In this document: positions 2,542 through 53,503 of the stretch, in pieces
How the letters are laid out: every line of letters starts with the position of its first letter
Numbering within the stretch: the stretch's first letter is position 1
Source of the DNA: Candidatus Micrarchaeia archaeon
GTDB lineage: Archaea > Micrarchaeota > Micrarchaeia > Anstonellales > Anstonellaceae
DNA: 64,000 nucleotides
NCBI GenBank assembly: GCA_041659465.1
Contig: JBAZYD010000001.1
Coordinates: forward strand, 4,281-68,280
Direction: 5' to 3'
Position numbers and translations under genes: made by a program
Notes under the pieces: generated by a model
Databases searched by the model: none
What the model saw: the letters and a program-made list of their open reading frames with translations, nothing else
Told to the model about the DNA's origin: nothing

Positions 2542-2576
2542 CCGATGGGCGAAACGATGCATTTCGGGGTGGAAAC

Positions 2577-3224
2577 ATGAAGATTTTCCTTGACACGGCG
2601 GACGCTGCCAAGATAAAGAAATATGCCGGGATGGGCATGGTGGACGGGGTCACCACCAACCCCACGCTCATACTCAAGTCAGGAAGGCGCCAGGAGGACG
2701 TCACCAAGGAGATATGCGGGATGGTGGACGGGCCAGTCTCGGCCGAGGGGAACTGCGAGCGCGCCGAGGACATGGTGAAGGAGGGCGAGATTTTCGCCTC
2801 GTGGGCGAAGAATGTGGTGGTGAAGGTGCCCATGACTCTCGAAGGGCTCAAGGCCGTCCGCGCGCTTTCGAAAAAGGGGATAAGGACGAACGTGACGCTC
2901 GTGTTCACCCCTGCGCAGGCGCTTCTTGCCGCCAAGGCAGGCGCAACCTTCGTTTCCCCGTTCGTGGGGAGGCTGGACGACGCAGGCGAGGACGGCATGG
3001 CGCTTGTCGAGGACATAATGGGCATCTACAAAAACTACTCCTGCAAGACGCAGGTGATTGTGGCATCAGTGCGCTCGGTTGCGCACATCGTGCGCGCCGC
3101 AAAGGCAGGGGCGGACATCGCCACCGTGCCGCTGAATGTGATGGACGAGATGTTCGCGCACAAGCTGACGGATGCCGGCATAAAAAAATTCCACGACGAC
3201 TGGGAAGCCGCGAAGAAAAAGTAG
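2577..3224 (+). CDS. tal: Transaldolase / fructose-6-phosphate aldolase (short TalC/FsaA type)
   Basis: The 215-aa product starts MKIFLDTAD...TTNP and contains the Schiff-base Lys region VVVKVP, as in archaeal-type transaldolases. It is adjacent to tkt. Confidence 0.88.
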   Translation: MKIFLDTADAAKIKKYAGMGMVDGVTTNPTLILKSGRRQEDVTKEICGMVDGPVSAEGNCERAEDMVKEGEIFASWAKNVVVKVPMTLEGLKAVRALSKKGIRTNVTLVFTPAQALLAAKAGATFVSPFVGRLDDAGEDGMALVEDIMGIYKNYSCKTQVIVASVRSVAHIVRAAKAGADIATVPLNVMDEMFAHKLTDAGIKKFHDDWEAAKKK

Positions 3225-3321
3225 GCGGCAAGCAGGGGGCGGCTGCGGATGGGGCGGCGCAGTGAAGGAATGCCTGCCGGCAGTGGCAATCGTTTTTAAA
3301 GCAGCCTGAGAAAGGGCTTCC

Positions 3322-4692
3322 ATGAAACCGGACAATGGCGCGAAAGCGCGCGCTGTTTTTGCAAAGGCGCTTCCAAGGATAACCCCCAGCAGGCGCGAGG
3401 CCGCGGAATGCTTTGCGACCGCGGCAGCGATGGCAAAAAAGCTCGAGCGCGTGCTGCCCCCGGCAGTCGAGGTGCGCCTTGCAGGCTCGCTTGCCAAGGG
3501 CACTGCCCTCGCGGGCAACAACGAGTTCGACATCTTCATGCTTTTCCCGCGCCATTACTCCCACCATGAGATGACCATGATGGGCATGCAGTATGCCAGG
3601 CGCGCGTTCGCAGGCATGCGCGTAGAGGCGCGCTATGCGGAGCACCCATACCTGCAGGTGTTTTACCGGGACTACCATGCGGACATCGTGCCGGCATACA
3701 GGATAGAGCGCATCTCGGAGCGCGGCTCGTCGGTCGACCGCTCGCAGCTGCACACGGCGTACATCAATGCCAAGTTGGACGCGGCTGCGAAGGGGGACGT
3801 CAGGCTGCTCAAGCGCTTCATGAAGAACTTCGGCATTTACGGCGCGGAGCTGCGCGTCGAGGGGTTCTCGGGCTACCTTTGCGAGCTCCTCATCGTGCAC
3901 CACGGCTCGCTTTTTTCGCTCATGTCCGCAGTTTCGCAGTGGCATGCTCCGGTCGTGGACACCGAGAAGCACCTGAGCGAGGACGCTGCAAGGCGGAAGT
4001 TCCCGCAGGCGCCCCTCATCGTGGTGGACCCCACCGACCCGAACAGGAATGTCGCCGCGGTGGTGGCGCACACGTCGCTCTCGCGGTTCATATTCGAGTG
4101 CCGCCGCTTCCTCGCCGCGCCATCCGAGAAATTCTTCTTCGCCAAGAAAACAGTGAGGAGCCCGCGGGAAATCGCCAGGGCGATGAAGGAGCGGGGGACA
4201 ATGTGCCTTGCCGTGCGCTTTCCCGCGCCCAAAGTGGTGCCGGACGTGCTTTGGCCGCAGCTTAGGAAGACCGCGCAGGCGCTTTCCAGGAGGCTGTCCG
4301 AGCAGGGCTTTTCGGTGTTCGGCTCCTACCATTGGAGCGACGGGGCGGAGTGCGCCGTGCTTTTCGAGATTGACAGGTGGGAGCTCCCCGCGGTGGCAAA
4401 GGCGATTGGCCCGTCCGTGCGGTTTGCGCGCGACTGCGAGTCTTTCGTGAAGAAGCACAAGTCGGCGCTCAACATGCACATAGAGCACGACAGGATGGTG
4501 GCGGTGGAGATCCGCAAGGTGAGGCAGGCGCGCGCCGCGCTTTTGCATGCATGCCGCCACCCGCACGGCGCAGGCATACCCGGGAACATGGAGCATGCGA
4601 TGGCGCGCTGCGAGGTTGCCGGGGCGGAAAGGCTGCTTTCGAAAAAGTACGCCGAGTTCCTGTCCGACTATTTCTTCGCGAAAATCGCCTGA
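3322..4692 (+). CDS. cca: CCA-adding enzyme (tRNA nucleotidyltransferase, archaeal class I)
   Basis: GSLAKGTAL...DIFMLFP is the class-I nucleotidyltransferase G-S/D-x-D motif. Length (~456 aa) and overall layout match archaeal Cca. Confidence 0.8.
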   Translation: MKPDNGAKARAVFAKALPRITPSRREAAECFATAAAMAKKLERVLPPAVEVRLAGSLAKGTALAGNNEFDIFMLFPRHYSHHEMTMMGMQYARRAFAGMRVEARYAEHPYLQVFYRDYHADIVPAYRIERISERGSSVDRSQLHTAYINAKLDAAAKGDVRLLKRFMKNFGIYGAELRVEGFSGYLCELLIVHHGSLFSLMSAVSQWHAPVVDTEKHLSEDAARRKFPQAPLIVVDPTDPNRNVAAVVAHTSLSRFIFECRRFLAAPSEKFFFAKKTVRSPREIARAMKERGTMCLAVRFPAPKVVPDVLWPQLRKTAQALSRRLSEQGFSVFGSYHWSDGAECAVLFEIDRWELPAVAKAIGPSVRFARDCESFVKKHKSALNMHIEHDRMVAVEIRKVRQARAALLHACRHPHGAGIPGNMEHAMARCEVAGAERLLSKKYAEFLSDYFFAKIA

Positions 4693-5587: not shown

Positions 5588-5786
5588 GCTGCCTCTTTCT
5601 GTTTTTCTTTTCCTGTTTTTTACCCGTTTTGTTTTTCCCTTTTTGCTTCTCTCTTTCCCTGCATTGCCTTTTCCTTTCTTGCCTTTCTTTCCCTGCTTTC
5701 CATTCCGTTTTGTTTTTATCTTTCTTGCTTTTCCTGCTTTTTATTCTGCATCCTCGGCTTTGCTTTTTTCCCCGTCGGCAGGCGCA
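5588..5786 (+). repeat. ~190-bp polypyrimidine (C/T) tract on the + strand, between convergent genes
   Basis: More than 85% C+T across ~190 bp (ctttctgtttttcttttcctgtttttta...ctttcttgcttttcctgc), inside an otherwise ~60% GC, balanced-composition genome. Confidence 0.9.
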
Positions 5787-6958: not shown

Positions 6959-7380
6959 GGCAGGGGCATGCGCGCCCAAGGATTAAAAAACGCGCATGTC
7001 CCAAAAGGGCGCACAGGGGCGTTGGCTCTGCTTTTTATATATTTTGCCTTCTATCAACCGTCAGAGTCCCGCCATAACTCAACCTGGTAGAGTGCTTGGC
7101 TGTAGTAAAACAACGGCCGTCGGCGATTGTGCTGGCAGTCATCAAGATGTTGTGTGTTCAAGAACCCTTTTTGCTCCTCCCGCAAGCGCTCGTCGCAAAA
7201 AGCGCTCCCGGAAAAGCAAATGTGCGAAAAGGCGTTGAACAAATCACACTGGCGGGATTTTATATTCTTCCTTTAAACAGAAAGGGAAGCGCGCGCCAAA
7301 TCCTCGTGGATTTGTCGATCCAGGCGAACGGCGATCCGTTCGCCTGCTCCACCCATTTTGCCCGCAGGCAAAATGGCTGT

Positions 7381-7452
7381 GCCTCGATGGTGTAGTGGTT
7401 AGCATCCCAGATTGTCGATCTGGTGACCCGGGTTCGAATCCCGGTCGGGGCG
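7381..7452 (+). tRNA. tRNA-Asp (anticodon GTC)
   Basis: Manually folded cloverleaf. Acceptor stem GCCTCGA/TCGGGGC. Anticodon arm CCAGA-TTGTCGA-TCTGG. T-arm CCGGG-TTCGAAT-CCCGG. CCA is not encoded. Confidence 0.85.
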
Positions 7453-7510
7453 TTCCAGGCTTTTTTTCATTATTTTACGGCGTAGAGATTGCAGTGGGTT
7501 CGAATCCCCG

Positions 7511-7596
7511 TTTGGGCGTGGATTTACAAGACCATGTGCATTTTGCGCAGCAAAATGCATCAGACATCGAACTGAGGTTCGATGCTGAACGCCCAG
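7511..7596 (+). ncRNA. Structured element, copy 1 (two hairpins: GCATTTTGC-GCA-GCAAAATGC and CATCGAAC-TGAG-GTTCGATG), preceded by a degenerate tRNA 3'-like fragment (GGGTTCGAATCCCC)
   Basis: The core ACCATGTGCATTTTGC...GCAAAATGCATCAGACATC-hairpin-GATGCTGAACGC is shared with copy 2 at 9240-9338. The second hairpin shows compensatory changes between the copies. Confidence 0.5.
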
Positions 7597-7700
7597 CCAG
7601 ACTATTTTAATTTTACATCTGCAACAGTGCAACAGGATTATTTAATACATATACATACATTTTTAAACACTTGCATGCATATCGAAATAGAGGAGAGACA

Positions 7701-9053
7701 ATGCAGAAGATTAGTGTACGCGAGAAAATATCATCTGAGCAAGCAATTCGGCACCCGTGGCAAACTGCACGGAAATACAACAAATTGGCCAATGAAAATA
7801 CACAATTAAAGGTGCAACTGAAACGAGATGCGACAAAGCCTTCCAAAATGTCCCCCAACTGGGCATTTTGGTACCCTCAGAGGACTGCACGGATAATCAA
7901 CAGCCTAATTGAAGAACAGAGCTTGCTAAAAGAAAAGATTGCGGAACAAACGTTCCAGTCTGTCCCTAAGAGTGAGCCCATATCTGATATGACTATCGTG
8001 AAAGATGCCACCCCTCAAAACGTTTTGAAAAATGTTGTGCCCGAAGGAATGACCCCTCACGAACAATGGGCCCATCTTTTAGGTTGGCGTATGCCTACTG
8101 TAAATCTCGAGAGCATGAAACTGCTTGCCTCGGGGGATACTAGGCTATCCACAGAAGAAATAATCGCCCTTTACACTGGCTGGCGCATTTGCGATGCCAT
8201 ACCTGATAAGGAAAAGGCACGGAGAATTGTGGAAAATGCCAATTCCTGGTTGCCCAAGATAAATCAGCAGAAAATCAGCGAGAATAGCCAGATAGCTTAC
8301 TTGATGGCAGCCATGCTCACTCTTCGGGATGCAAATGCAGTCAAATCGAATTTTAATAACTACGTGCCAGTATCTGACCAGCTATTTGTCACTATGGAAG
8401 TTGGAACCACTTTTTACGAGGCAAACATGATAAGTGGTGGCAAATATTTCATATCAAGAGACATCCGAACCAGCCAATTGTGGGCTTTTGAGCTTCCGGA
8501 AAGATATTTCGGACCTGACGGAAACGAGATTGACATTGTTAAAGAAATCAGTGGAAAGCAAAAATCTGACATATCGGCAGTCATGACAACGCCGCTTGGC
8601 AATGTAAAGGGAATAAATGCACGGGCAATAAAGACAGAGGATCTCCAAAAACTAGGCCAGAACCCGGGCGCATGCGTATATGTTCTGGACATTGACCCGT
8701 CGGCTTGGCGGACGTTCATTGTAGATGAGAGAAACAGCGAGGCTACTGGATGCAGCATCCAATATGATGAAAATGGAAGGCTCACCCACTACGAAGGAGA
8801 AACAGGTGGCTCTTTGTCATCTCCCTTCTATATGCAATTATCATACAGAAGTGTTAGCGCTAATAATCCTCGACCGAGCTGGCTCGGACTTCTTGTGGCA
8901 GGGAAGCATTATGATAATTATTACGCTCACGAAACTGCAGTTAAGAGGTCACGGGTATCGGACAAGTTTATTTTTTCAGCCGCTCACCCGCAGTCATTGC
9001 CCATGGACGTAATCATTGATACCGGAAAACTCAGCCGGAGCCGCTCAGACTGA
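7701..9053 (+). CDS. Hypothetical protein (orphan, low-GC gene)
   Basis: 450-aa ORF with much lower GC than its surroundings. A GGAGG-like RBS sits before the ATG at 7701. No recognisable motifs. Confidence 0.55.
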   Translation: MQKISVREKISSEQAIRHPWQTARKYNKLANENTQLKVQLKRDATKPSKMSPNWAFWYPQRTARIINSLIEEQSLLKEKIAEQTFQSVPKSEPISDMTIVKDATPQNVLKNVVPEGMTPHEQWAHLLGWRMPTVNLESMKLLASGDTRLSTEEIIALYTGWRICDAIPDKEKARRIVENANSWLPKINQQKISENSQIAYLMAAMLTLRDANAVKSNFNNYVPVSDQLFVTMEVGTTFYEANMISGGKYFISRDIRTSQLWAFELPERYFGPDGNEIDIVKEISGKQKSDISAVMTTPLGNVKGINARAIKTEDLQKLGQNPGACVYVLDIDPSAWRTFIVDERNSEATGCSIQYDENGRLTHYEGETGGSLSSPFYMQLSYRSVSANNPRPSWLGLLVAGKHYDNYYAHETAVKRSRVSDKFIFSAAHPQSLPMDVIIDTGKLSRSRSD

Positions 9054-9239
9054 TGGAATGCGCAAGCTAGGCAATTCAAAGCCATCTTATTGCGCGCGCG
9101 ACAATCATAACGCGGACGGAAGTTCCGGGAACGTTGGCGGGCAACCACTGTTTTGAACCAAAATTTCCTAGGAAATGCACTGTGTGTCCGGCCAAGCGCA
9201 GCATTTCCGCTTGGAAGCCGTTTTTTCCTCGACGTGGGA

Positions 9240-9338
9240 ATTTGGGCGTTAGGTCGCCCGGACCATGTGCATTTTGCTGCGCAAAATGCATCAGACATCT
9301 TCGTTGCGACGAAGATGCTGAACGCACGGTCGGGGCGT
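9240..9338 (+). ncRNA. Structured element, copy 2 (GCATTTTGC-TGC-GCAAAATGC and CATCTTCGT-TGCG-ACGAAGATG hairpins), ending in a 13-nt copy of the tRNA-Asp 3' end (CGGTCGGGGCGTT)
   Basis: Diverged direct repeat of 7511-7596 with covarying stems. Its 3' flank duplicates nt 7442-7454 of tRNA-Asp. Confidence 0.5.
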
Positions 9339-9415
9339 TGGCTAAATGGTTAGGCTTTGAAATGCCAACGTCTGCTGGGCACTCTTTTTTATATGTTCTT
9401 TTTGCTTGTTAGCGC

Positions 9416-10198
9416 ATGCCAAAAGCCATTGTTTTCGACCTGGACGGGGTGGTATACCTGGGAGCGCAGGGGATTCCCGGCGTTGCAGCCGAGATTGCGC
9501 GGCTGCAGGAAAAGACAACGGTGCTTTTCCTCACCAACAACACGACAAAGGGAAGGATAGAGTATGTGCGCCACCTCGAGCGCTTCGGCATCAAGGCTAA
9601 TTCAAAGGATGTGATGACCTCGGCGTACGGATGCGCCTGCTACCTGGAGGACAAGTACGGCAGGGGCAGAAAAGTGCTTGTCATCGGGGAGTCGGGCCTG
9701 CGCTACGAGCTTGAGGGGGAGGCGATGGCTGAAATCGTGGAGGAAGGGGCGGAGTTTGTGGTGTGCGGCCTGGACAGGCAGCTCACATATGACAAGCTGG
9801 ACAAGGCGCTGCACAGCCTGGATGCGGGCGCTGCATTCATTCTTGCCAATTCCGACCCCACATTGCCGCGCGAGCATGGGGCATCGCCTGGCTCGGGCGC
9901 GATTGCGGCGTCGCTCATTTACGCAAGCGGAAGGAAGCCCGACGTGACAATAGGCAAGCCGTCGGCGTATCTCATCAACAAGCTGCTCCGGATGCATGGG
10001 ATTGCCGCGAAGGACGCTGTTTTTGTCGGCGACAGGCTGGACATTGACATCAGGATGGCGAACAAGGCAGGCATGAAATCCGTGCTTGTGCTTACAGGAG
10101 TTGCGAAAAAATCCGACCTGAAGCGCGCGCCAAAAGGCGACAAGCCGGACATTGTGGTAGCATCGGCCGCAGAGGTCGGCAAGGCGCTGGGGATTTGA
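9416..10198 (+). CDS. HAD-superfamily hydrolase, subfamily IIA (NagD / p-nitrophenyl-phosphatase-like)
   Basis: HAD motif I (FDLDGVVY), a TNNT motif II-like segment, and VGDRLDIDI (motif IV). Confidence 0.8.
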   Translation: MPKAIVFDLDGVVYLGAQGIPGVAAEIARLQEKTTVLFLTNNTTKGRIEYVRHLERFGIKANSKDVMTSAYGCACYLEDKYGRGRKVLVIGESGLRYELEGEAMAEIVEEGAEFVVCGLDRQLTYDKLDKALHSLDAGAAFILANSDPTLPREHGASPGSGAIAASLIYASGRKPDVTIGKPSAYLINKLLRMHGIAAKDAVFVGDRLDIDIRMANKAGMKSVLVLTGVAKKSDLKRAPKGDKPDIVVASAAEVGKALGI

Positions 10199-14565: not shown

Positions 14566-17500
14566 ATGAGCGATTCCGCACAAATAGGCAAGGCATGCCT
14601 TAGTGGCAACCCTGAAGCGCGCGGCCTTTCCGCGCATTTTTCCCCATTTTTTGTTTTTTTCGCATCCCTGCTGCTGTTTTCAGGAGCCGTGCATGCCGCC
14701 TGCCCCGGAACGGTGTCTGCGGACTACAACATGACCCAGAACGAGACTGCCACCACTACCGCCTGCATAGTCGCCGGCACGGCAGGCATAACAGTCGACT
14801 GCCAGGGGTTCACCATCACACTCAACGGGGGCTCGGCAGTGCCGGCAATCGACGTCAACAGCCAGAACATCACCATCAGGAACTGCGTCATTGCGGAAAC
14901 CAGCGCGACCAACGTGGCATGGGGGGCGCTCCACCTCCGCGCCACCGCCAACAACACCACGGTGACGAACACCAACATAAGCTCGGCCGGCCATTATGCC
15001 ATCTACGCCCTTTCAAGCTACAATAGCTTCACGGACGTGAGGGCGCTCGCCACCACCCAGAACGTCGGCGCAGTGAGGTTCGACGCAAGCAGCTTCAACC
15101 ACCTGGCGAACATGGTGATAAACAAGACGGCAACCGCGAACACGTATGCGCTTTACTGGAACACAGGCGACTCGAACGCGCTTGACAACGTTTTCGCGGA
15201 CGGGTCGGCCGCAGGGACGGCCAAATACGGGGCCTACCTGAACACATTCACCAATGGCAATCTCACCAACTGCGAGTTCAACTCGCTCACCAACTATGCA
15301 GTGTGGCTGACAGGCGGCTCGACAGGGAACAATTTTTCAGCCCCCCAGATAAACACCTCGGGCACTGCGGCCGCGCACGGGTTCTACATCGACTTGTCGT
15401 CTGGCAACAGCATAAGCGACGCCAGCATCAACTCCAGCGGGGTCGGGATATACATCGTCTCAAGCTCCGGCGCGACCAACATCCAGAGGGCGTGGATAAA
15501 CTCCACTGCTAGCTCGGGGATATACATACAGGCGAGCGTGGCATCCGACGCCAACATCATAAACGGAAGCACGGTGAATGCGCTCAACTACCCGCTGTGG
15601 GTGCACCAAAGCTCGTACAACCTCGTGTACAACTCCACGTTCATAAGCGCCGCAGGGCATGCATTCTACACTGACACGGGCACCAACGGCAATGTCTTTG
15701 TCAACAACACGTTCCAGAGCAGGTTCACAACCACTGGCTACTATGGCATGTACTTCGTCTCCGACTCGTCGTACAACCTCATTGAGAACAATACCATATG
15801 GTCGCCCACGTATTACGCCATATATTTCGGCATGAGCAGCAGCTACAACAACATAAGCAGGAACAGCATAACCGCCTCGGCAAACGCAGGCTACGGGGTG
15901 ACGTTTGCGGCAATACCCGCCGACAACAACCAGGTGATAGAGAACAACATAGTGGCGAACGGGTTCGGGATACAGATAATGGGGGATTACAACAACGTGA
16001 GCGGCAACAACGTGGTTTCCAACGCCTCGTCGGGAATCTACCTCTACCTGTCCAATTACAACACGCTGGAAAGCAACAACGTGACTGCGGTGAACAACGG
16101 GATTTACCTCTACACCAGCACCTACAACAACATCACGAACAGCAACTACACGACCAACTCGTCCTACACCGCGTACCTTGCGACCAATGCCGATTACAAC
16201 CGCTTCGCGGGCAACGTGTTCAACCAGACAAGCGGGACTGCGCTCGACGCAAGGATTGGCACCTACATAGTCACCTCCAACTACAACTGGTTCGAGAACG
16301 GCACGATATGGACGTATGGCAGCGACGCGGTGAGGGTAACCACCAGCGCGAACAACAACGTCTTCAGCAACAACATCGTCTACACCAACGCCACCAACTA
16401 CTACGGCGTCCAGGTGACCACCAACTGCCAGTACAACCAGTTCAACGGCAACAACATAACCTCGGAGAAGGGGTATGGCGTGCTGGTGACAACCACCTCG
16501 AAGTACAACACGTTCAACGGGGGCTTCGTGGACGCCTACAGGCAGACGGGCATCACGGTGCAGACCTCGTCCACCTACAACAACTTCTCCAACATGAACG
16601 TGCGCACAGGCATAAACGCCAACGGCGGGTACGGGCTTTACCTGACAGGCTCGGCAAACAACAACAAGTTCACCAACATGACATTCGCCTCGAATGCCAC
16701 CTATTGCGCCTACCTTTACAACGTGGCGAACAACAACGAGTTTTCCAACGTTTCCTTCTTCTCAAACACGTCCATCGCAATCTACATGCTCCAGAACGTG
16801 CAGGGCAACGTGTTTAGGAACTTTTCCGCGACCTCGAACAACACCTACGCGCTGGACCTGAACGGCAACGGCAACGTGGTCAACTACAACTCGTTCAGGC
16901 ACGGGTACCTCCAGAGCAACTCCACGGCAGGCGGGACCGCGGCGCTGTACCTTTACAACGCGGTGAACTACAACAACTTCACCAACATGACAATCACCAA
17001 CCTGGGCGGCATGGGCGTGTACTTTTACGTGGCTGCCAACAACATATTCAACAACACCACGATAAACGCCGGCCCGCTGACAAACGCATACGGCATGCAG
17101 CTGCAGACGCTCTCGCAGAACAACCAGTTGGTGAATTCCGTGATAAACACCGCCGCGCCCATAGTGAGCGGCGGCTATGACATGGTGATAGGGAACTTGG
17201 CGGCCCAGCCTTCCAGCCTGGTCGCGACAAACACCTCGTTCGACACCATGAGCGGGGTGAACATACCCAATGTGGACACCAATTCCTACCTGAACCTCAC
17301 ATGGTACCTGAGGGCAAACGTCTCAAGCCTTGCAGGCGCCCCGGTGGAGGGCACAAGCGTGGCCATCTACAACGCAAACGGGGCATTGGTCTCGAACAAC
17401 GCCACCGACTCGTCCGGGCTCACCCCCTGGGTGGCGGCCATGCAGTACAAGCAGACGCAGTCGGGCTCCGGCCCGTATATCTATACATTATTCTATCCGT

Positions 17501-20500
17501 ACAACTTCACAGCCACCATAGGGGCGGTGTCAATGAACGACACGCTCCCCACGCTCACCGCAAGCACGGTGAAAAGCATAAGCATGAACGCCACGGCATG
17601 CGGGGTGCTCTCGTCGGATTACACGCTCACCAACCCTGTCTACGGAGGCACGGACTGCTTCACCGCGGCCGCATACGGGCTGACGCTGGACTGCAACGGG
17701 TATGCGGTGAACTACTCGCGCACGGGCGCGGGATGCGGGCTGGCCATCGGCTCGTTCACGAACATAACCGCAAGGAACTGCGCGTTCGCGCAGGGCGCCT
17801 TCAACTCCTCCTCATCCGCATCGGTGTGCCTCTCGTCGTATGCCAATGCCACCATCGCAAACAGCACGTTCTCAACGCAGGGGGGCGCGAACGGCTATGC
17901 GTTCTCCCTGTCGGACAGCTTCGCAACCGCGCTCAACGACAGCTTCGCATACTCAAGCGCCCTTGTGTCGGGCGCGTCGCTCCTCCACAGGAAGTGGTAT
18001 GTCTCCACCAACGTCACCGACCTTGCAGGGAACCAGGTGATGTCCGCCAGCCTGAATATCACGGATGCGCAAAACACGACCATCGGCCCGCTTGCGGTCT
18101 CGTACGGCGCGGCAAGCGTGCCGCCGCTGACGCAGTACATGCAGGGCGCATCGGGCGCGACGTATTACAGCAACTACAGCTTCTATTCATGGGTGGGCAA
18201 CTCCAACAGGACGGTCCAGCTGAACCTCACCACGAACTCCGTGGTATCCATCCCGATAAACGCCTCCACCTGCGGGGTGTTCACAGCATCGATGACGCTG
18301 AAGAACGGCATCTACTCCCCGGGAACCTGCCTGGTGGCCGGGGCGCACTCGCTTACCGTGAACTGCAACGGCTACTCCATCAACTACTCGCAGGCGGGCA
18401 ACGGGCACTATGGCATCGACACGGCGGGGTACAACAACATAGAGGCAATCAACTGCTCGTTCGTGTCCGGCAATGCAAGCGCCGCTGATTCCTATGCGGT
18501 GTACATCAACAATTCGGCCGACTTCAGGCTGCACAATTCCACCGTGGAGGGGAGGGCGGCAAGGCTCAACACCACCTCCCAGGCGCAGTTCATAGGCACC
18601 AGGTTCGACAACGGGACCGTGGACTACTCGGACGCCTTAAGCACGCTGACCTCGAAGCAGTATGCGTACGTGCATGCCATAGGGCTTGCGGGCGAGAGCG
18701 TCAACGGCTCGGCCGTGAACGCCACGGACGCGTTCGGGAGCGTGGCGGCAAGCGGCACCACGGACGGGAACGGCACGGTCACGTTCCTGCTCACGCAGTT
18801 TGTCCAGGACCTTTCCGGGCTTGTCCCGTACGACCCCTACAACTTCACTGCGGCGCACCCTGAAACGCAGGTCGTGAATTACACCTACACCCCCATGAAC
18901 GAGAGCAAGGACGTGACAATCGGCCTGATTTCGGCAAACATCGCGATAGACTCGCCCAATGCCGGGCAGATTTTCATCCAGGGCGACCCTGTCCAGGGCG
19001 GGCCTGTGAACATCGTGGTGAACGAGACTAGGGGGCAGGGGTGGATAGACAACGTCACGGTGCAGGTGCAAGGCGACCCGTTCAACTACACCTATCAGGC
19101 AGTGGAGGTATCGCCCAACCAGTGGGGGTACAACTACACCATAGACCTGAGCCAGGTGTCGGCCACGCTCACCATAGTGGCAAGGGGATACAACGGCACT
19201 GCGTTCGTGAGCGCTACCCGTGATTTCGTGGTCACCCGCTCCTCGGGCTCGGGCGTGCTGCCACCCGTCGTAAGCTATTTCTGCCCCGACTACACCTACC
19301 TCAAGGCGAACAGCACGGAAAACATAAGCATATCCGCGGACCTTGACACCGTGCTTTACAGCATGAGCCTCAACGTCACCTACCCGAACGGGTCAAGCTC
19401 GCTCCTGTCGCCCATTGCCTCGTCATCCGGAAGCGACTATGTCTACAACAGGACATGGCAGCTTTCAATCAACCAGACAGGGAACTATACCCTGTATGCC
19501 ACCGTCACGGACGTGAACGGCAACAACGCCAATTCCACGAGGCGCATATATTCGGTGCCGCAGAACGTGACTGCGAGCCTGTCGGCAAACGGGCCTGACG
19601 CGCTTTACATGAACGACGTGTGCAGCGGGCGCACGCTGTTTTCCGGGGCCAACCTGACAGGGGTGTCGGTTGCGCCGGGGAATTACACCATGGTTGCGGA
19701 GGAGTACGGCCGCGCCAAGCTCTCGTTTTTGGACTTCAACGTGACCTCGGCAAGCGGCGTGTTCCTCAACTACTCCCGCGAATCCGCCGTGGGGCTTCTC
19801 CCGCCCACCAACAGGAGGAACGTATTGCTGTTCTCGACCCATGTGCTGGGCGGCAGGTTCAGCTCAGTGGACGTGCGCATGAACTACAGCTCTGAGGCAG
19901 GCAGCCTGGTTGCGGAATACAGCCTGGACGCGTATGCCTGCGCGGACTTCTACAACTGCACCTGGTCGGCCATGAACTACACGCTCAGCGTGCCTGCCAA
20001 GATAATGAACGCCAGCGTCTCCAACCTGAGCGGGCTCTACGGGATATTCGAGCCTGCATACCAGGACCCCATAATCATCCCAATCAACGTGGTGCCGCCG
20101 CAGGTGGCGCTGCTTGCGCCAAGCCCCTCGTACGCAATCGCCAACTCGACCATCACGGTGTACCTCAATGCGGACCTGGACGCGAACTTGTCTGGGGCAT
20201 GGGTCAACATCACCTACCCCGGCGGCTCGGCAGCCAACCTGACCAACCTGACATTCTCGAACGGCACGGGCTACACGTACAACCTCACCTACTCGTTCGT
20301 GGCGAACGAGACAGGAACATATTACATATCCGCGCGCGTGAACGACACCTACCACCAGAATGGCACGGCAATCGCGCAGGCGCACGTGCTGGCGGCTGCG
20401 CAGGAAGTGAACATCACGTCCTACGGCGTGGTTTCCTCGCTTCTCCTCGACCAGGGGATAGGCGCAACCGTGCTTTCAGGCGCGGGCTCCATGTCGGGAA

Positions 20501-23500
20501 GCGCGGCCGTAGGCAACTACACCGCGCGGTTGGGCACGCAGAATGCGAATGCCAGCTTTGACTTTTACCAGCTTGAGGTGCTGGGAGGGAACTTCAGCCT
20601 CCTGAACTTCAGCGAGCTCTCGCTGCTCACCGCGCCCGTGACCCATCCTGCCAACAGGAGCGCGCTCTACCTGTTCGATGCTGCAGCCGCCGGGATGAAC
20701 TACAGCGGCGCAGGGGTGAGGGTGAACTACACGCAGAGCCTGCCAAGCATAATTTCCGAGGTGGCCCTTGAGGCATGGCATTGCGGAAGCATTGGAAACT
20801 GCACAAGCATGTCAAGGGTGAATGCCACAATCGACACTGCGCTGCACACAGCCACGCTCAACCTGTCCGAAGTTTCAGGCGTGTACGGGATTTACCAGCC
20901 GCTCCTGTCCATCACCACCCCTGTGCAGGCGCCGCTGCCAGTGGTGGCAAGGTTCACAGCCAACAGGATAAACGCCGCCCAGAACGCCAATGTCACAGTC
21001 TACCTCGACCTGGAGATGGGCGCCAACCTGTCGCTTGCCAATGTAAGCGTGGCAAGGCCTTCGGGCGGCGTCCAGTTCCTCTCGAACAGCTCGTATGCCA
21101 ATGGCACCAACCACACCTACAACCTGACATATACGGTATACACGAATGAAAGCGGCACCTACTCGCTTTCCGCGTTTGTAAGGGACGTCTACGCGCAGAA
21201 CACCACGGCAAACGCGACATTCTTTGCAGCCGCCAACGACCTGGTGATGATTACATCGTACGGCCTGGACAACTCAAGCCTGATTGACCCGGGGACGGGC
21301 GCCGTTGCGCAGACCGGCGGGAATTTGCTTGCTGCAAGCCTGCCGCTTGGCAACTACACGTTTGCCGCAAATGCCTCGATTGTAAACATCACGCTGTACC
21401 AGCTGCAGGTGACAGGGGTGATGAATGGAATCAACCACACCAACCTGTCAACCTCGGCAGTGGCTGCGCCTGCGAACAGGAGCGGGCTTTGCCTCTTCAG
21501 CGCTGCCTCGCTTGCCGGCGCCGCCTATGGCAGGGCAAGCGTGGCGATAAGGTATGGAAGCCTTGTTGGAAGCATAGTGTCCGAGGCATCCCTTGAGGTA
21601 TGGCAGTGCGAAAGCGTGGCGAACTGCTCCAGCATGGAGCGGGTGAATGCCACAATCGACTCAGCGCTCCACACCGCCACGTTCAACCTTTCCACAGTTT
21701 CCGGCGTGTACGGGCTTTACCAGCCGCTGCACACGGTGAGCACCTCGGTGCAGGCAGCTGCGCCGCAGATAGCGCTTTTTGCGCCAAGCAGGGCAAGCCC
21801 AGTGAGGAACACCAATGTGACCGTGTACCTGAACGCCGCGCTGGGCGCCCAGCTGTCAAGCGCCGTGGTCACCGTAGCCAAGCCCTACAGCGGGCTGCAG
21901 ACGCTGGTGAACGCGACGTATTCCAACGGCACCAACTACACCTACAACTACACGTATGTCGTGTATGCCAACGAGCCCGACACCTACACGCTCACCGCGG
22001 TGGTGACGGACATCTATGGCCAGAACGCCACTGCCACAAGCTCCTTTGACGCGCAGTACAACACCAATGTGGTGGTGACCTCGTACGGCATGGAAGCCAC
22101 GCGCGTGGTGGACTCCGGGGTCGGCACTGCGCTTCTCTCGGGCGGCAACGTGCTTTCAGGCAGCATCCCCCCGGGAACATACACGTATGCCGCTGACGCA
22201 AGGAACGTAACGTTCACGCTTTTGCAGCTGCCGATAAGCGCAAGCCTGGCAGTGCTCAACTACACCAACTGGTCGGATTCCGCAATCCCCTCCCTCAACA
22301 ACAGGAGCACGCTGTATGTGTTTAGCGTCGGCAACCTGAGCGCGGGGTATTCGCATGCAAGCGCCGCGATAAACTACACCTGGCTTTCTGCAAGGGTGAT
22401 ATCCGAGCCATCGCTTGAGGTCTGGCAGTGCCCAAGCGTTGCAAACTGCTCGGGCATGTCAAGGGTGGATGCCGCAATCGACACGGCATCAGACACAGTC
22501 ACGTTCAACATGACGGATGTTTCCGGCGTGTACGGGCTTTACCAGCCGTCGCAGACCGTGACCCAGACAGTGCACGCAGGGCTTCCGGTAATAACCAGGC
22601 TTGCGCCAAGCGCATACAACACGCTTCTGGGCGAGAATGTCACCATCTACCTGGATGCCACCCTGAGCGTCAACCTGTCCTCCACCCTGGCAAGCCTGTC
22701 CTACCCGTCAGGGGCGGTTGCGAACCTGACCAACGTGACATTCGCCAACGGGAGCGGCTATGACTACAACTACACATATGCGTTCATTGCGAACGAGACC
22801 GGGCGCTATGGCATCACAGCAACAGTATACGACATATACGGCCAGAATGCGACCGCAAACGCCTCGGTGTGGGTGGCTGCCGCGAACGAGAGCGTGTCCA
22901 TTGCCTCGCCAGGGGCGAATTCCTCGCTCCTTTATGATTCGGGAATGGGCACTGCCGTGCTTTCAGGCAACTCCACCATGGAGGGGAACATCACCCCTGG
23001 GAACTACAGCGCGCAGGTCAATGCGTCAAGCGTGGCATTCAGCTTCACTTCGCTTGAGGTGCAAGGCGGGAACCACACCCTCCTGTCGTTTTCCAGCCTT
23101 GCAACAGGCAGCGCTACTGCGCCTGCCAACCGGAGCGAGATGTATGCGTTTTCCGCAAATGCGACAGGCATGGCGTTTGGCTCTGCGGGTATGGAGATAG
23201 ACTACTCGGCTTTGCTTGGCGGCGTGGTGTCGGAATCCGCGCTTGAGGTCTGGGCATGCGAAAGCGTGGCGAACTGCAGCAACATGACCAAGCTTTCCGC
23301 CGCCATCAACACGGCCTCCGATAAAGCCGTCGCGCAGTACTCGGCAGCATACGGGGTCTATGGCCTGTACCAGGCGTCCCAGACCGTCACAGTGACCGAA
23401 ACCGTGACCAATATAGTGCACCAGAGCAACACGAACACCGTGACTAAGGAGGTCAAGACAAACGTCACGGTTGTGAAGAACGTCCCTGTGCCATTCGAGG

Positions 23501-24234
23501 TCCCGGTAGAGGTGAGCGTGCCCTCCTACACCACGGTGCGGCTGCTCTCCGGCCCGCAAAGCGTGGAGATGCACCCGGGCGAAACCACCAATGTCGAGAT
23601 AACGGTGCAAAACAGCCTGGGCAAGGACATAGGCACGGTGACACTTACTGTGCAGCACGGGGACGGGGTGGAGGCGAGCCTTTCCAGGGACACGTTCACC
23701 CTTGCTTCGGGCGCATCGGAAAAGGCAATGCTTGCCATCAAGGCAAGCGCAGGCACAGGCAGCACGAGCGTGAGGATAGCCGCGGACGCGCCATCGATAA
23801 AGATAAAGGACGAGATGTCATTAGCGGTGATGGTGTCAGCGGGCCTTGAAAAGGACAAGCTCGCTGCGCAGCAGAAGATAGAGTTTGCAAAGAAGCTGAT
23901 AGCCGACAACCCCGAGTGCCTGGATTTGCAGGAGGGGCTTGCCAGCGCGGCGATGTACATAGGCAGCGGCAAGTACGCAAGCGCCGAGGCAAGGGCGCAA
24001 AGCACCATATCCAGCTGCTCGGGCATTATGGCGCTGCGCGGCAAGGCCGTCATCCAGACCGAGAAGGTGCCGCAGGTCGACCTTGCGGCAAGCCTGGCAA
24101 TACCTGTGGCGTTCATGGGGGCCGCAGGCGCAGCCGCCCTGGTGGTCTTCATGTTCGCAAAGAGCAGGGAAAGGAGGAAGCGGGACATAGGCAAGCGCAT
24201 TGCTGCAACCCACGGCAAGGGCAGCGCCCAGTGA
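14566..24234 (+). CDS. Giant (3222 aa) cell-surface protein. It has an N-terminal signal/anchor, a right-handed parallel beta-helix (PbH1 / NosD-like) repeat region, dozens of N-glycosylation sequons, five tandem ~276-aa Cys-pair repeats, and a C-terminal TM helix with a basic tail
   Basis: PbH1-type repeats such as ENNTIWS, SRNSITAS, SGNNVVSNASSGIYLYLSNYNTLESNNVTAVNNGIYLY lie at roughly aa 330-800. N-x-S/T sequons are extremely dense. Each repeated module carries LEVWQCESVANCS-M-RVNATIDTA...VSGVYGLYQP. The C-terminus reads ...AALVVFMFAKSRERRKRD. Confidence 0.85.
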   Translation: MSDSAQIGKACLSGNPEARGLSAHFSPFFVFFASLLLFSGAVHAACPGTVSADYNMTQNETATTTACIVAGTAGITVDCQGFTITLNGGSAVPAIDVNSQNITIRNCVIAETSATNVAWGALHLRATANNTTVTNTNISSAGHYAIYALSSYNSFTDVRALATTQNVGAVRFDASSFNHLANMVINKTATANTYALYWNTGDSNALDNVFADGSAAGTAKYGAYLNTFTNGNLTNCEFNSLTNYAVWLTGGSTGNNFSAPQINTSGTAAAHGFYIDLSSGNSISDASINSSGVGIYIVSSSGATNIQRAWINSTASSGIYIQASVASDANIINGSTVNALNYPLWVHQSSYNLVYNSTFISAAGHAFYTDTGTNGNVFVNNTFQSRFTTTGYYGMYFVSDSSYNLIENNTIWSPTYYAIYFGMSSSYNNISRNSITASANAGYGVTFAAIPADNNQVIENNIVANGFGIQIMGDYNNVSGNNVVSNASSGIYLYLSNYNTLESNNVTAVNNGIYLYTSTYNNITNSNYTTNSSYTAYLATNADYNRFAGNVFNQTSGTALDARIGTYIVTSNYNWFENGTIWTYGSDAVRVTTSANNNVFSNNIVYTNATNYYGVQVTTNCQYNQFNGNNITSEKGYGVLVTTTSKYNTFNGGFVDAYRQTGITVQTSSTYNNFSNMNVRTGINANGGYGLYLTGSANNNKFTNMTFASNATYCAYLYNVANNNEFSNVSFFSNTSIAIYMLQNVQGNVFRNFSATSNNTYALDLNGNGNVVNYNSFRHGYLQSNSTAGGTAALYLYNAVNYNNFTNMTITNLGGMGVYFYVAANNIFNNTTINAGPLTNAYGMQLQTLSQNNQLVNSVINTAAPIVSGGYDMVIGNLAAQPSSLVATNTSFDTMSGVNIPNVDTNSYLNLTWYLRANVSSLAGAPVEGTSVAIYNANGALVSNNATDSSGLTPWVAAMQYKQTQSGSGPYIYTLFYPYNFTATIGAVSMNDTLPTLTASTVKSISMNATACGVLSSDYTLTNPVYGGTDCFTAAAYGLTLDCNGYAVNYSRTGAGCGLAIGSFTNITARNCAFAQGAFNSSSSASVCLSSYANATIANSTFSTQGGANGYAFSLSDSFATALNDSFAYSSALVSGASLLHRKWYVSTNVTDLAGNQVMSASLNITDAQNTTIGPLAVSYGAASVPPLTQYMQGASGATYYSNYSFYSWVGNSNRTVQLNLTTNSVVSIPINASTCGVFTASMTLKNGIYSPGTCLVAGAHSLTVNCNGYSINYSQAGNGHYGIDTAGYNNIEAINCSFVSGNASAADSYAVYINNSADFRLHNSTVEGRAARLNTTSQAQFIGTRFDNGTVDYSDALSTLTSKQYAYVHAIGLAGESVNGSAVNATDAFGSVAASGTTDGNGTVTFLLTQFVQDLSGLVPYDPYNFTAAHPETQVVNYTYTPMNESKDVTIGLISANIAIDSPNAGQIFIQGDPVQGGPVNIVVNETRGQGWIDNVTVQVQGDPFNYTYQAVEVSPNQWGYNYTIDLSQVSATLTIVARGYNGTAFVSATRDFVVTRSSGSGVLPPVVSYFCPDYTYLKANSTENISISADLDTVLYSMSLNVTYPNGSSSLLSPIASSSGSDYVYNRTWQLSINQTGNYTLYATVTDVNGNNANSTRRIYSVPQNVTASLSANGPDALYMNDVCSGRTLFSGANLTGVSVAPGNYTMVAEEYGRAKLSFLDFNVTSASGVFLNYSRESAVGLLPPTNRRNVLLFSTHVLGGRFSSVDVRMNYSSEAGSLVAEYSLDAYACADFYNCTWSAMNYTLSVPAKIMNASVSNLSGLYGIFEPAYQDPIIIPINVVPPQVALLAPSPSYAIANSTITVYLNADLDANLSGAWVNITYPGGSAANLTNLTFSNGTGYTYNLTYSFVANETGTYYISARVNDTYHQNGTAIAQAHVLAAAQEVNITSYGVVSSLLLDQGIGATVLSGAGSMSGSAAVGNYTARLGTQNANASFDFYQLEVLGGNFSLLNFSELSLLTAPVTHPANRSALYLFDAAAAGMNYSGAGVRVNYTQSLPSIISEVALEAWHCGSIGNCTSMSRVNATIDTALHTATLNLSEVSGVYGIYQPLLSITTPVQAPLPVVARFTANRINAAQNANVTVYLDLEMGANLSLANVSVARPSGGVQFLSNSSYANGTNHTYNLTYTVYTNESGTYSLSAFVRDVYAQNTTANATFFAAANDLVMITSYGLDNSSLIDPGTGAVAQTGGNLLAASLPLGNYTFAANASIVNITLYQLQVTGVMNGINHTNLSTSAVAAPANRSGLCLFSAASLAGAAYGRASVAIRYGSLVGSIVSEASLEVWQCESVANCSSMERVNATIDSALHTATFNLSTVSGVYGLYQPLHTVSTSVQAAAPQIALFAPSRASPVRNTNVTVYLNAALGAQLSSAVVTVAKPYSGLQTLVNATYSNGTNYTYNYTYVVYANEPDTYTLTAVVTDIYGQNATATSSFDAQYNTNVVVTSYGMEATRVVDSGVGTALLSGGNVLSGSIPPGTYTYAADARNVTFTLLQLPISASLAVLNYTNWSDSAIPSLNNRSTLYVFSVGNLSAGYSHASAAINYTWLSARVISEPSLEVWQCPSVANCSGMSRVDAAIDTASDTVTFNMTDVSGVYGLYQPSQTVTQTVHAGLPVITRLAPSAYNTLLGENVTIYLDATLSVNLSSTLASLSYPSGAVANLTNVTFANGSGYDYNYTYAFIANETGRYGITATVYDIYGQNATANASVWVAAANESVSIASPGANSSLLYDSGMGTAVLSGNSTMEGNITPGNYSAQVNASSVAFSFTSLEVQGGNHTLLSFSSLATGSATAPANRSEMYAFSANATGMAFGSAGMEIDYSALLGGVVSESALEVWACESVANCSNMTKLSAAINTASDKAVAQYSAAYGVYGLYQASQTVTVTETVTNIVHQSNTNTVTKEVKTNVTVVKNVPVPFEVPVEVSVPSYTTVRLLSGPQSVEMHPGETTNVEITVQNSLGKDIGTVTLTVQHGDGVEASLSRDTFTLASGASEKAMLAIKASAGTGSTSVRIAADAPSIKIKDEMSLAVMVSAGLEKDKLAAQQKIEFAKKLIADNPECLDLQEGLASAAMYIGSGKYASAEARAQSTISSCSGIMALRGKAVIQTEKVPQVDLAASLAIPVAFMGAAGAAALVVFMFAKSRERRKRDIGKRIAATHGKGSAQ
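19900..23400 (+). repeat. Five in-frame tandem repeats (period ~825-850 bp, ~276 aa) inside the giant gene
   Basis: Conserved blocks start at ~19921, 20768, 21594, 22418 and 23247, each reading gag g(c/t)(a/c) tgg ca. tgc ... gtgtacgg. ctttaccagcc. Confidence 0.8.
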
Positions 24235-53407: not shown

Positions 53408-53503
53408 GCGGATGTAGTATAACCTGGCTAGTATTTTGGCCTTCCATAATTTGGTTCTGCTTGAAGAAAGTCAAAGGTCCGGGTTCAAATCCCGGCATCC
53501 GCA
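53408..53503 (+). tRNA. tRNA-Gly (anticodon TCC) with a ~22-nt intron after anticodon-loop position 37
   Basis: Acceptor GCGGATG/CATCCGC. D-stem GTAT/GTAT with G.U pairs. Anticodon arm TTGGC-CTTCCAT. T-arm CCGGG-TTCAAAT-CCCGG. Total 96 nt versus ~74 expected. Confidence 0.7.

Follow-up and report, generated by a model that had tools for sequence, protein, structure and literature searches.

The 64-kb stretch of contig JBAZYD010000001.1 that we analyzed (hereafter the window), which comes from a Candidatus Micrarchaeia archaeon, carries two copies of a double-hairpin module, copy 1 at 7534-7588 and copy 2 at 9265-9321, both on the plus strand. Comparison with related Micrarchaeota contigs (labelled L0xx; L010, L012, L018, L020, L035, L038 and L043 among them) indicates that the module is a discrete insertion, present at three different sites without clear target duplication and usually located just 3' of GACC(A/T). 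The same comparison places both window copies at the two ends of an integrase-less remnant, in palindromes that adjoin core repeats of the tRNA-Asp 3' end. We tentatively favor, as a reading that falls a little short of probable, that the module is a small non-autonomous palindromic mobile element lodged in the attachment (att) palindromes of a decayed tRNA-Asp integrative element.

Structure and distribution of the module

Two sequence blocks are shared by the copies: the 17-mer GACCATGTGCATTTTGC, at 7530 and 9261, and the 19-mer GCAAAATGCATCAGACATC, at 7550 and 9281. Each occurs exactly twice in the 64 kb (chance expectations of 0.29 and 0.01, respectively, with up to three mismatches), and no third match to either was found in the window at this tolerance. 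Both copies are closed by GATGCTGAACGC, at 7581 and 9314. The shared layout, initially noticed in a first-pass annotation made from the letters alone, was confirmed over 7530-7592 and 9261-9325, and the two copies are homologous. Each module begins with ATG, followed by hairpin A (7537-7559 in copy 1, 9268-9290 in copy 2), TCAGA, hairpin B (7565-7584 and 9296-9317) and a terminal CTGA. Hairpin A was described correctly as perfect, but its stem, TGCATTTTGC/GCAAAATGCA, comprises 10 bp and not 9 bp. Its loops differ as annotated, GCA in copy 1 and TGC in copy 2, and we observed in addition that they are exact reverse complements, the 23-mer at 7537-7559 being the exact reverse complement of 9268-9290. 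The hairpin B stems (8 bp in copy 1, 9 bp in copy 2) do differ between the copies and yet pair perfectly, as had been claimed, and a CAG/CTG clamp, in which a single A is bulged, extends them (7561-7587 and 9292-9320).

Hairpin A (TGCATTTTGC) and hairpin B (CATCGAAC) show no sequence relation to each other, and the module ends (ATG.. and ..GCTGA) show no inverted-repeat relation; the left end is separated from hairpin A by 3 nt, and the right end from the clamped hairpin B by 1-4 nt. The duplicated unit extends farther than the first-pass annotation had it, although the copies that it delimited are real: the unit starts upstream, at a decayed tRNA 3' end (GTGGGTTCGAATCCCCGTTTGGGCGT for copy 1, GTGGGAATTTGGGCGT for copy 2), and runs to the ACGC beyond CTGA. 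Three copies were folded on both strands, and the minimum-free-energy and centroid structures alike gave a closing helix and two perfect hairpins, with folding z-scores of -4.3 to -7.6 whichever strand was folded. Perfect hairpins of at least 8 bp number 14 in the window, six of them within 7321-9317, and shuffled windows contain 2-11.

The possibility, raised in the annotation, that no further copies exist was not borne out. A covariance model made from three module copies (R1), which scores copy 1 at 94 bits and copy 2 at 84 bits, was used in the search of related Micrarchaeota contigs, and more copies were found there: in L018 (4590-4665, minus strand, 86 bits), in L010/L011 (25 bits, E about 1e-5), in L043 (8971-9045, minus strand, E 1.2e-9) and in L020 (1-34, minus strand), where the module is cut by the contig end. 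Diverged versions were found in L037/L038 and L035; in these, a 10-bp hairpin with a 3-nt loop is followed by a CAG..CTG hairpin, and the flanks are GACC and ACG. The family thus comprises modules of 48-57 nt with a 10-bp hairpin A bearing a 3-nt loop, TCAGA, a clamped hairpin B of 7-9 bp and the CTGA end, and it is specific to a clade of Micrarchaeota. Its orientation relative to tRNA-Asp and the neighbouring genes varies, being plus in the window and minus in L018 and L043. The pattern CCATGTGC-N-GCATCAGA-N-CTGAACGC gave 0 matches in genome, metagenome and viral collections because it is too strict, the L018 copy already differing by one base in the first block; looser module patterns matched, among viral contigs, only unrelated phage coding sequence or high-GC sequence by chance.

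Across the family, the linkers ATGTGCATTTT, AAAATGCATCAGACA and TGCTGAACGC are invariant, and they are identical between the window and L018, whose neighbouring 10-nt spacers are unrelated. The stems vary, hairpin A occurring as TGCATTTTGC, TGCATTTTCGC, TGCATTTTGCC, CAGTTGCGC and TGATAATCAC, and hairpin B as CATCGAAC, CATCTTCGT, CACTGAAC, CATCGCC and CATCGCCC. In the model-based alignment, 100% of the stem cells pair; both partners are altered in eight pairs, and in no pair is just one of them altered (counts somewhat inflated by the inclusion of two palindrome self-hits). Module stem pairs amount to 136 Watson-Crick and 4 G-U, the latter confined to helix ends, and C(UUCG)G loops are present in L018 and L038. 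The stem changes remained compensatory when L018, L020, L043, L010 and the diverged L038 and L035 were added, so the covariation reported in the annotation is real.

Several other identities were considered for the module and rejected. A tRNA-intron or bulge-helix-bulge (BHB) relic, one of the candidates originally put forward, did not survive examination: the folds (both strands, three copies) show no BHB at the borders, that is, no 3-nt bulges 4 bp apart, the module lies outside any tRNA body, and neither Rfam nor ARAGORN gives a match. The failure of the initial attempts to fold the copies as a canonical or permuted tRNA or as a C/D-box small RNA (sRNA) was upheld, since ARAGORN and Rfam are blank at both copies. 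ARAGORN and the Rfam tRNA models match only 7380-7453 and 53408-53503, and the copies are blank to E 10, which also disposes of a split tRNA. As to a C/D-box sRNA, which requires box C (RUGAUGA) and box D (CUGA) in a K-turn together with guide regions, CUGA is present, but the candidate 5' box AUGUGCA lacks the G-A dinucleotides, and no Rfam C/D family matches. Rfam as a whole returned nothing at both copies at gathering or E-value thresholds. An integron attC site, which is one long imperfect hairpin (R''-L''/L'-R') with extrahelical bases beside cassette ORFs and an IntI gene, was discarded: the module's perfect hairpins are two and separate, they show no pattern of extrahelical bases, and an integron integrase is lacking. 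A minus-strand micro-ORF (MSDAFC...) was discarded on the grounds that neither its start codon nor its frame is conserved in L018.

Split palindromes and their empty counterparts

The integration target of the surrounding element is the tRNA-Asp(GTC) gene at 7380-7453 (plus strand; ARAGORN, Rfam 63.9 bits). The att core repeat corresponds to its 3' end, CGGTCGGGGCGTT, at 7442-7454, and an exact 13-nt copy of the attR type lies at 9327-9339 on the plus strand, followed by host flank and a HAD hydrolase gene (9416-10198) that has more than 100 Micrarchaeota homologues. An attR-type remnant likewise precedes the HAD gene or host flank in L007, L018 and L043. The GC content is 40-48% across 7450-9100, versus 55-65% in the flanks. 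The tRNA-like segment annotated upstream of each copy proved genuine: the one at 7494-7519 (plus strand, GTGGGTTCGAATCCCCGTTTGGGCGT) is a decayed copy of the T-arm and 3' end of tRNA-Asp, with 88% identity to 7430-7453, and the one at 9234-9249 (plus strand, GTGGGAATTTGGGCGT) is further decayed and aligns to the first with two deletions. The arrangement at 7494-7519 is also found in L020, L017 and L043, and, as an additional decayed tRNA 3' end, it points to integration in successive events, the older end having been displaced by a later one.

Copy 1 lies in a type-I palindromic unit (7514-7594, plus strand), GGGCGTGGAT-TTACAAG-ACC / module / ACGCCC, which represents the integrase-proximal 10-7-10 palindrome at the left end, its right arm being interrupted by the module. 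An intact, empty homologue of this unit is present in L012, GGGCGTAGTT-CTACAAG-ACCTACGCCC, with the integrase gene directly after it. The 60 nt that follow tRNA-Asp in L012, GGGGCGT AGTT-CTACAAG-ACCTACGCCC AGCCATACCATTTTAAATTTTAC, contain the palindrome, which overlaps the tRNA end, and then the integrase promoter region. The flanks of copy 1 match those of L012 on both sides, integrase-promoter stretch included, as the window reads GGGCGTGGAT-TTACAAG-ACC before the module and ACGCCC AGCCAGACTATTTTAATTTTAC after it, the module standing between ACC and ACGCCC. The sequence beyond, AGCCAGACTATTTTAATTTTACATCTG (7595-7640, plus strand), is a remnant of the integrase promoter or leader and aligns to the L012 stretch that leads from the att palindrome to the start codon of the integrase. 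In L012 and L013, a 415-aa tyrosine integrase (Phage_integrase) is encoded 60 nt after tRNA-Asp, followed by methylase, type IV secretion system (T4SS)-pilin and TraC-like genes; the L043 integrase is 67% identical to it. The integrase is absent from the window, according to tblastn with the L012 protein and a Pfam/PHROG scan. The window therefore holds a remnant rather than an intact element, since the integrase is missing and only the promoter-like 7595-7640 is left. The same tblastn query gave nothing relevant over 258 kb of Micrarchaeota DNA, and no relative of the integrase was found in the viral contigs searched for it.

Copy 2 lies in a type-II unit (9244-9327, plus strand), GGGCGTTAGGT-CGCCCGG-ACC / module / ACGCAC, the right-end palindrome that abuts the att core; here too, the right arm is split, and after copy 2 the window continues with ACGCAC and then GGTCGGGGCGT. 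Two empty homologues were identified, one in L018 (5297-5335), GGCGTTAGT-CGCCCGG-ACTTACGCGC-GGTCGGGGCGT, and one in L043 (5672-5712), GGGCGTAGGT-TCTCCAG-ACCTACGCAC-GGTCGGGGCGT, the latter followed by host flank. The split palindromes have the general form GGGCGT..AGGT-N7-ACC^ACGCNC, with an equal insertion point at the left and right ends. The original suggestion that the copies are terminal repeats of a putative insert was therefore close to right, with the correction that they sit in att-type palindromic units at both ends of a decayed tRNA-Asp-integrated element.

The third site belongs to an unrelated locus and has no att sequence near it. In L010, the module separates the ribosome-binding site from the start codon of a conserved 91-aa gene, and six orthologous sites are empty (in the window, L007, L009, L012, L032 and L037). 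The L010 copy occupies 7546-7600 (equivalent to L011 3605-3660), with the Shine-Dalgarno sequence of this gene on one side and its start codon on the other; the gene product is Cys-rich. On the gene strand, the module supplies an in-frame ATG (MSDNHGVII-) together with GGAGTGAT, a Shine-Dalgarno-like sequence; for this reason, the gene may still be translatable despite the insertion. The junctions at the three sites, GACCT/ACGCCC, GGACTT/ACGCGC and CACCA/TCAAACC (the slash marks the module), fit an insertion free of duplication, although 1-4 nt of microhomology blurs the ends. The left flank is GACC(A/T) or GACT(A) for both window copies and for L018, L020, L010 and L038, several of these sites being homologous and hence non-independent; the exceptions are L043 (TTTACA) and L035 (a different sequence).

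The positions of the copies raise a second explanation, namely that elements of a tRNA-Asp-integrating family have the module as an integral accessory of their attachment region, providing arm-type or architectural palindromes or a cruciform for synapsis or directionality, and that the empty palindromes are losses. Palindromes of the GGGCGT/ACGCCC type by tRNA-Asp 3'-end core repeats are found no more than about 15 nt from five of the six sequence-similar copies and from all the diverged ones, the insertion point is the same in left-end and right-end palindromes, and in L038 and L035 the module and a short palindrome form an attL-attR mini-insert of about 75 nt between perfect 16-17-nt tRNA 3'-end repeats. 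Against this, the att palindromes seen in the two intact-integrase elements are uninterrupted by the module; these are the integrase-proximal one of L012 and the distal one of L043, the only one readable in a contig that begins 35 nt before the integrase gene. Furthermore, the module splits a 10-bp palindrome arm rather than adjoining it, and the L010 copy lies in an unrelated locus without att-like sequence and with six empty orthologous sites. We consider an accessory of this kind decidedly unlikely.

The mini-inserts themselves map to 8326-8414 in L037/L038 and to about 330-170 on the minus strand of L035. Between their perfect direct repeats of the tRNA-Asp 3' end, they hold just the short palindrome and the two-hairpin module, and in L035 a second hairpin pair lies beyond the distal repeat.

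Constraint on DNA hairpins or on RNA

If the module is a mobile element, it would move as DNA, probably in the form of single-stranded hairpins and with a transposase acting in trans, in the manner of IS200/IS605. It would prefer a short target that happens to occur in the recombinase-site palindromes of another mobile element. Its perfect stems and inverted loop would then reflect a constraint on DNA hairpins or template-switch repair, and not selection on RNA. The disrupted palindromes would likely be unusable, leaving the remnant fixed in place as a side effect.

The opposite inference, from covariation to selection on an RNA, was the one drawn in the first-pass annotation, and it is weakened by the present results. 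The covariation does not prove selection on RNA, because G-U pairs are almost absent, the loop is inverted between the two copies, and the module behaves as a DNA insertion that is present or absent at a given site. A structured RNA, either a small non-coding RNA or a cis-acting leader or trailer related to the spacer before tRNA-Asp, nevertheless has several points in its favor; RNA folding would keep the stems, and the binding of a protein or RNA partner would keep the linkers. The linkers are invariant and the stems covary across species, and conserved single-stranded linkers combined with covarying stems are a classic functional-RNA signature, which also counts against a mobile element. 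The C(UUCG)G loops and the negative folding z-scores agree with an RNA, as does the L010 module, which is located in a 5' leader and immediately precedes a start codon.

The spacer provides a further argument of this type. It lies between the tRNA-Tyr and tRNA-Asp genes (7297-7376, plus strand) and contains three perfect hairpins, C (7297-7314), B (7321-7346, of the CAG..CTG type) and A (7353-7376, with the core CATTTTGC). The tRNA pair and the three-hairpin spacer are present in nine related contigs, in which the stems differ and are always perfect (269 Watson-Crick pairs and 1 G-U). Read as the reverse complement, the B-A portion of the spacer has the module layout, so that the reverse-complemented module (B then A, CAG..CTGAT) mirrors what is presumably the leader transcript of tRNA-Asp. 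Perfect CAG..CTG hairpins were found only in the module and spacer classes in about 150 kb. This spacer could be a pre-tRNA leader structure or could consist of old insertions of the same hairpin elements.

Other features are difficult to reconcile with a structured RNA. G-U pairs are essentially absent, both strands fold equally well, and the orientation relative to the neighbours is inconsistent. Moreover, the copies share no promoter or terminator, no Rfam family matches, and close relatives lack the module at orthologous sites, which would be unexpected for a needed RNA. Taken on both sides, an RNA seems unlikely to us.

Regarding the spacer itself, the hairpin triplets were seen in L010, L012, L014, L017-L020 and L032. 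A similar triplet lies at 7507-7582 of L001, upstream of another intron-containing tRNA. The weak Rfam ROSE match at 7297-7385 merely reflects the three spacer hairpins.

The inverted loop also bears on a neutral origin, in which the copies would be the leftover of a duplicated att-flank with chance palindromes, their arms kept complementary by template switching and with neither function nor mobility. During replication, one template-switching event can create or repair a perfect stem, invert a loop and introduce multi-base changes that look compensatory (PMC8794818). Copies 1 and 2 have exactly inverted loops, and all the hairpins are perfect Watson-Crick palindromes, as such a process would leave them. 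In contrast, the linkers are identical between species whose adjacent non-coding DNA cannot be aligned, the module is also present at the non-homologous L010 locus, and the 10-bp stem with its 3-nt loop has been kept though the stem sequence was fully replaced. A purely neutral leftover is very improbable.

Several observations weigh against the mobile element that we favor. No transposase partner was found by tblastn with IS200 and IS608 TnpA (approximate query sequences) over the 258 kb of Micrarchaeota DNA, the single weak match falling in an aminotransferase gene, and no Y1 TnpA/TnpB parent element with matching palindromes was found in the same 258 kb. The copy number is low, with two copies in the 64 kb of the window and none in eight additional HAD-locus contigs from relatives (80 kb). 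Most copies are in tRNA-Asp att palindromes, and several may descend from one or two ancestral insertions; likewise, the empty sites could be precise losses. The L010 boundaries are ambiguous by up to ~10 nt, with an imperfect direct repeat of 10-12 nt (TGATAATCAC / TGATCAAACCAC). Finally, hairpins A and B are dissimilar, and L010 has an entirely different hairpin A, which would be unusual if a transposase must recognise them.

The single hint of such a transposase comes from a related Micrarchaeota contig (ENA ERZ1426827), which encodes a 160-aa Y1_Tnp protein (Pfam call; IS200-type transposase) three genes upstream of the HAD homologue. This protein could be the enzyme that mobilises the module.

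Among described systems, the closest likeness is to the haloarchaeal PATEs, which have no inverted terminal repeats, carry near-terminal palindromes, generate no target duplication and use a 4-6-bp targeting sequence; those of Haloquadratum walsbyi include 52-bp terminal-only forms that derive from IS200/IS605 and are possibly still mobile (PMC3119063). Like them, the module is archaeal, ~50 bp long and non-coding, has palindromes close to both ends but lacks terminal inverted repeats, shows no evident target duplication, seems in most copies to follow a short specific 5' sequence, and is present or absent between related genomes. Unlike them, its two palindromes are dissimilar and one is freely variable in sequence, neither an IS200/IS605-type parent nor TnpA/TnpB was found for it in the 258 kb, its copy number appears low, its host is a DPANN archaeon, and its preferred site is inside recombinase-type palindromes. 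Membership of the module among IS200/IS605-derived elements is not established. A second parallel is offered by the SMR-A repeats, whose preferred insertion sites are near-terminal palindromes within other mobile elements (PMC3119063). The module resembles them in being small, in having no transposase and no evident target duplication, and in targeting mobile-element palindromes and probably inactivating them; SMR-A differs in its size (~110 bp), its prominent inverted terminal repeats and its targets, which are IS605-type elements and PATEs and not integrase att palindromes.

In tandem or decayed integrative elements of the tyrosine-integrase kind at tRNA genes, and in cis-mobilisable attL-attR remnants (CIME-like), tRNA 3'-end repeats bracket low-GC DNA and successive displaced tRNA ends are present. 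The locus context described above is of this kind, including the integrase at the homologous position in relatives, and the module departs from it as an extra insertion inside the att-adjacent palindromes that also occurs away from att. Bacterial REP/BIME sequences are short extragenic palindromes, often paired, with covarying stems, that are mobilised by RAYT proteins (Y1 HUH), maybe as single-stranded hairpins. The module is comparable in its short, paired extragenic palindromes, in its covarying stems and in that it may be handled as single-stranded hairpins. A REP family numbers tens to hundreds of copies, shares a conserved GTAG-type head and is linked to a RAYT gene; for the module, no such trait (high copy number, GTAG-type head, RAYT gene) was seen.

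We think it quite unlikely, though worth stating, that the module represents an undescribed class of ~55-nt double-hairpin DPANN mobile elements that home into recombinase-binding palindromes at both ends of integrated elements, and into look-alike sites, and lock these elements in the chromosome, or else a new structured RNA of tRNA leaders and integrative elements. If the mobile-element reading is true, no small palindromic element lacking a transposase had, as far as we found, been described before from Micrarchaeota, a group of symbiotic archaea with tiny genomes whose mobile DNA is poorly charted. One selfish element would moreover have inserted in the recombination sites of a second one, a case relevant to how integrated elements become fixed beside tRNA genes. 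The case further calls for caution with perfect compensatory changes in stems, which usually serve to prove a functional RNA, since palindrome maintenance at the DNA level can produce them too. Complete genomes and metatranscriptomes can be searched with the covariance model and the target motif that the family yields, which makes the RNA-versus-DNA question directly testable.

Cargo and neighbouring tRNA genes

Between the two module copies, the remnant carries a low-GC cargo cassette (7655-9062, plus strand) composed of a conserved promoter-like stretch, CATACATTTTTAAACACTTG, and an ORF of 450 aa (7701-9053). The ORF has only three database homologues, all in Micrarchaeota metagenome-assembled genomes and in unrelated contexts, and no Pfam or PHROG match; AlphaFold2 with three sequences gave a pLDDT of 36. 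The ORF and the module are independent, since the homologues in L001 and L002 occur without the module. The cassette, including CATACATTTTTAAACACTTG, is also present at 5870-7210 of L001 and 5715-7030 of L002, which makes three unrelated Micrarchaeota contexts, and in L001 it is bracketed by imperfect inverted repeats of 31 nt (5721-5751 and 7333-7363). The 450-aa protein contains a repeated N-terminal FWxPxxTAR motif, encoded by a DNA repeat at 7743-7782 and 7863-7902.

The first gene of the tRNA-Tyr/tRNA-Asp pair is a tRNA-Tyr(GTA) with two introns (7068-7257, plus strand; exons 7068-7105, 7141-7161 and 7243-7257), one of 35 nt at the canonical 37/38 position and one of 81 nt in the T-loop. 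On genomic DNA, the unspliced gene is overlooked by ARAGORN and Rfam; spliced in silico, it forms a canonical 74-nt cloverleaf that ARAGORN recognizes as tRNA-Tyr(gta). The gene is conserved in L012, L010, L018, L032 and L038. Intron-containing tRNAs in the window, together with the Micrarchaeota homologues of the HAD hydrolase and of the 450-aa ORF, identify the host as a DPANN archaeon of the Micrarchaeota. Upstream of its promoter, at 7009-7027, there is a third att-like remnant (CGCAC..GGGGCGTTGGCT; compare 9321-9343). The tRNA pair is on the HAD strand in the window and L037/L038 and on the opposite strand in L010, L012 and L032. This remnant, together with the different strand relative to HAD among relatives, suggests that the tRNA pair was inverted between att-like sites.

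The L018 contig shows additional changes in this region. Its tRNA-Asp gene has a canonical intron of 49 nt (4444-4492) that the window's gene does not have, and about 40 nt of it (CCCTTTTCGGCGNTCCGAAAAGCGTTCACGGAAAA, with a perfect 8-bp hairpin inside) are also present in intron 1 of tRNA-Tyr (4088-4135), which looks like intron transposition between tRNA genes. The same contig carries a 1.5-kb insertion (2543-4068) that has an ORF of 412 aa (2691-3929) and, on its flanks, a duplicated 19-nt stretch from the 5' end of tRNA-Tyr, TCCCGCCATAACTCAACCT; the 5' side of the tRNA pair would thus be a second hotspot of integration. Downstream of the locus in the window, a single ORF of 3222 aa extends over 14566-24234 on the plus strand.

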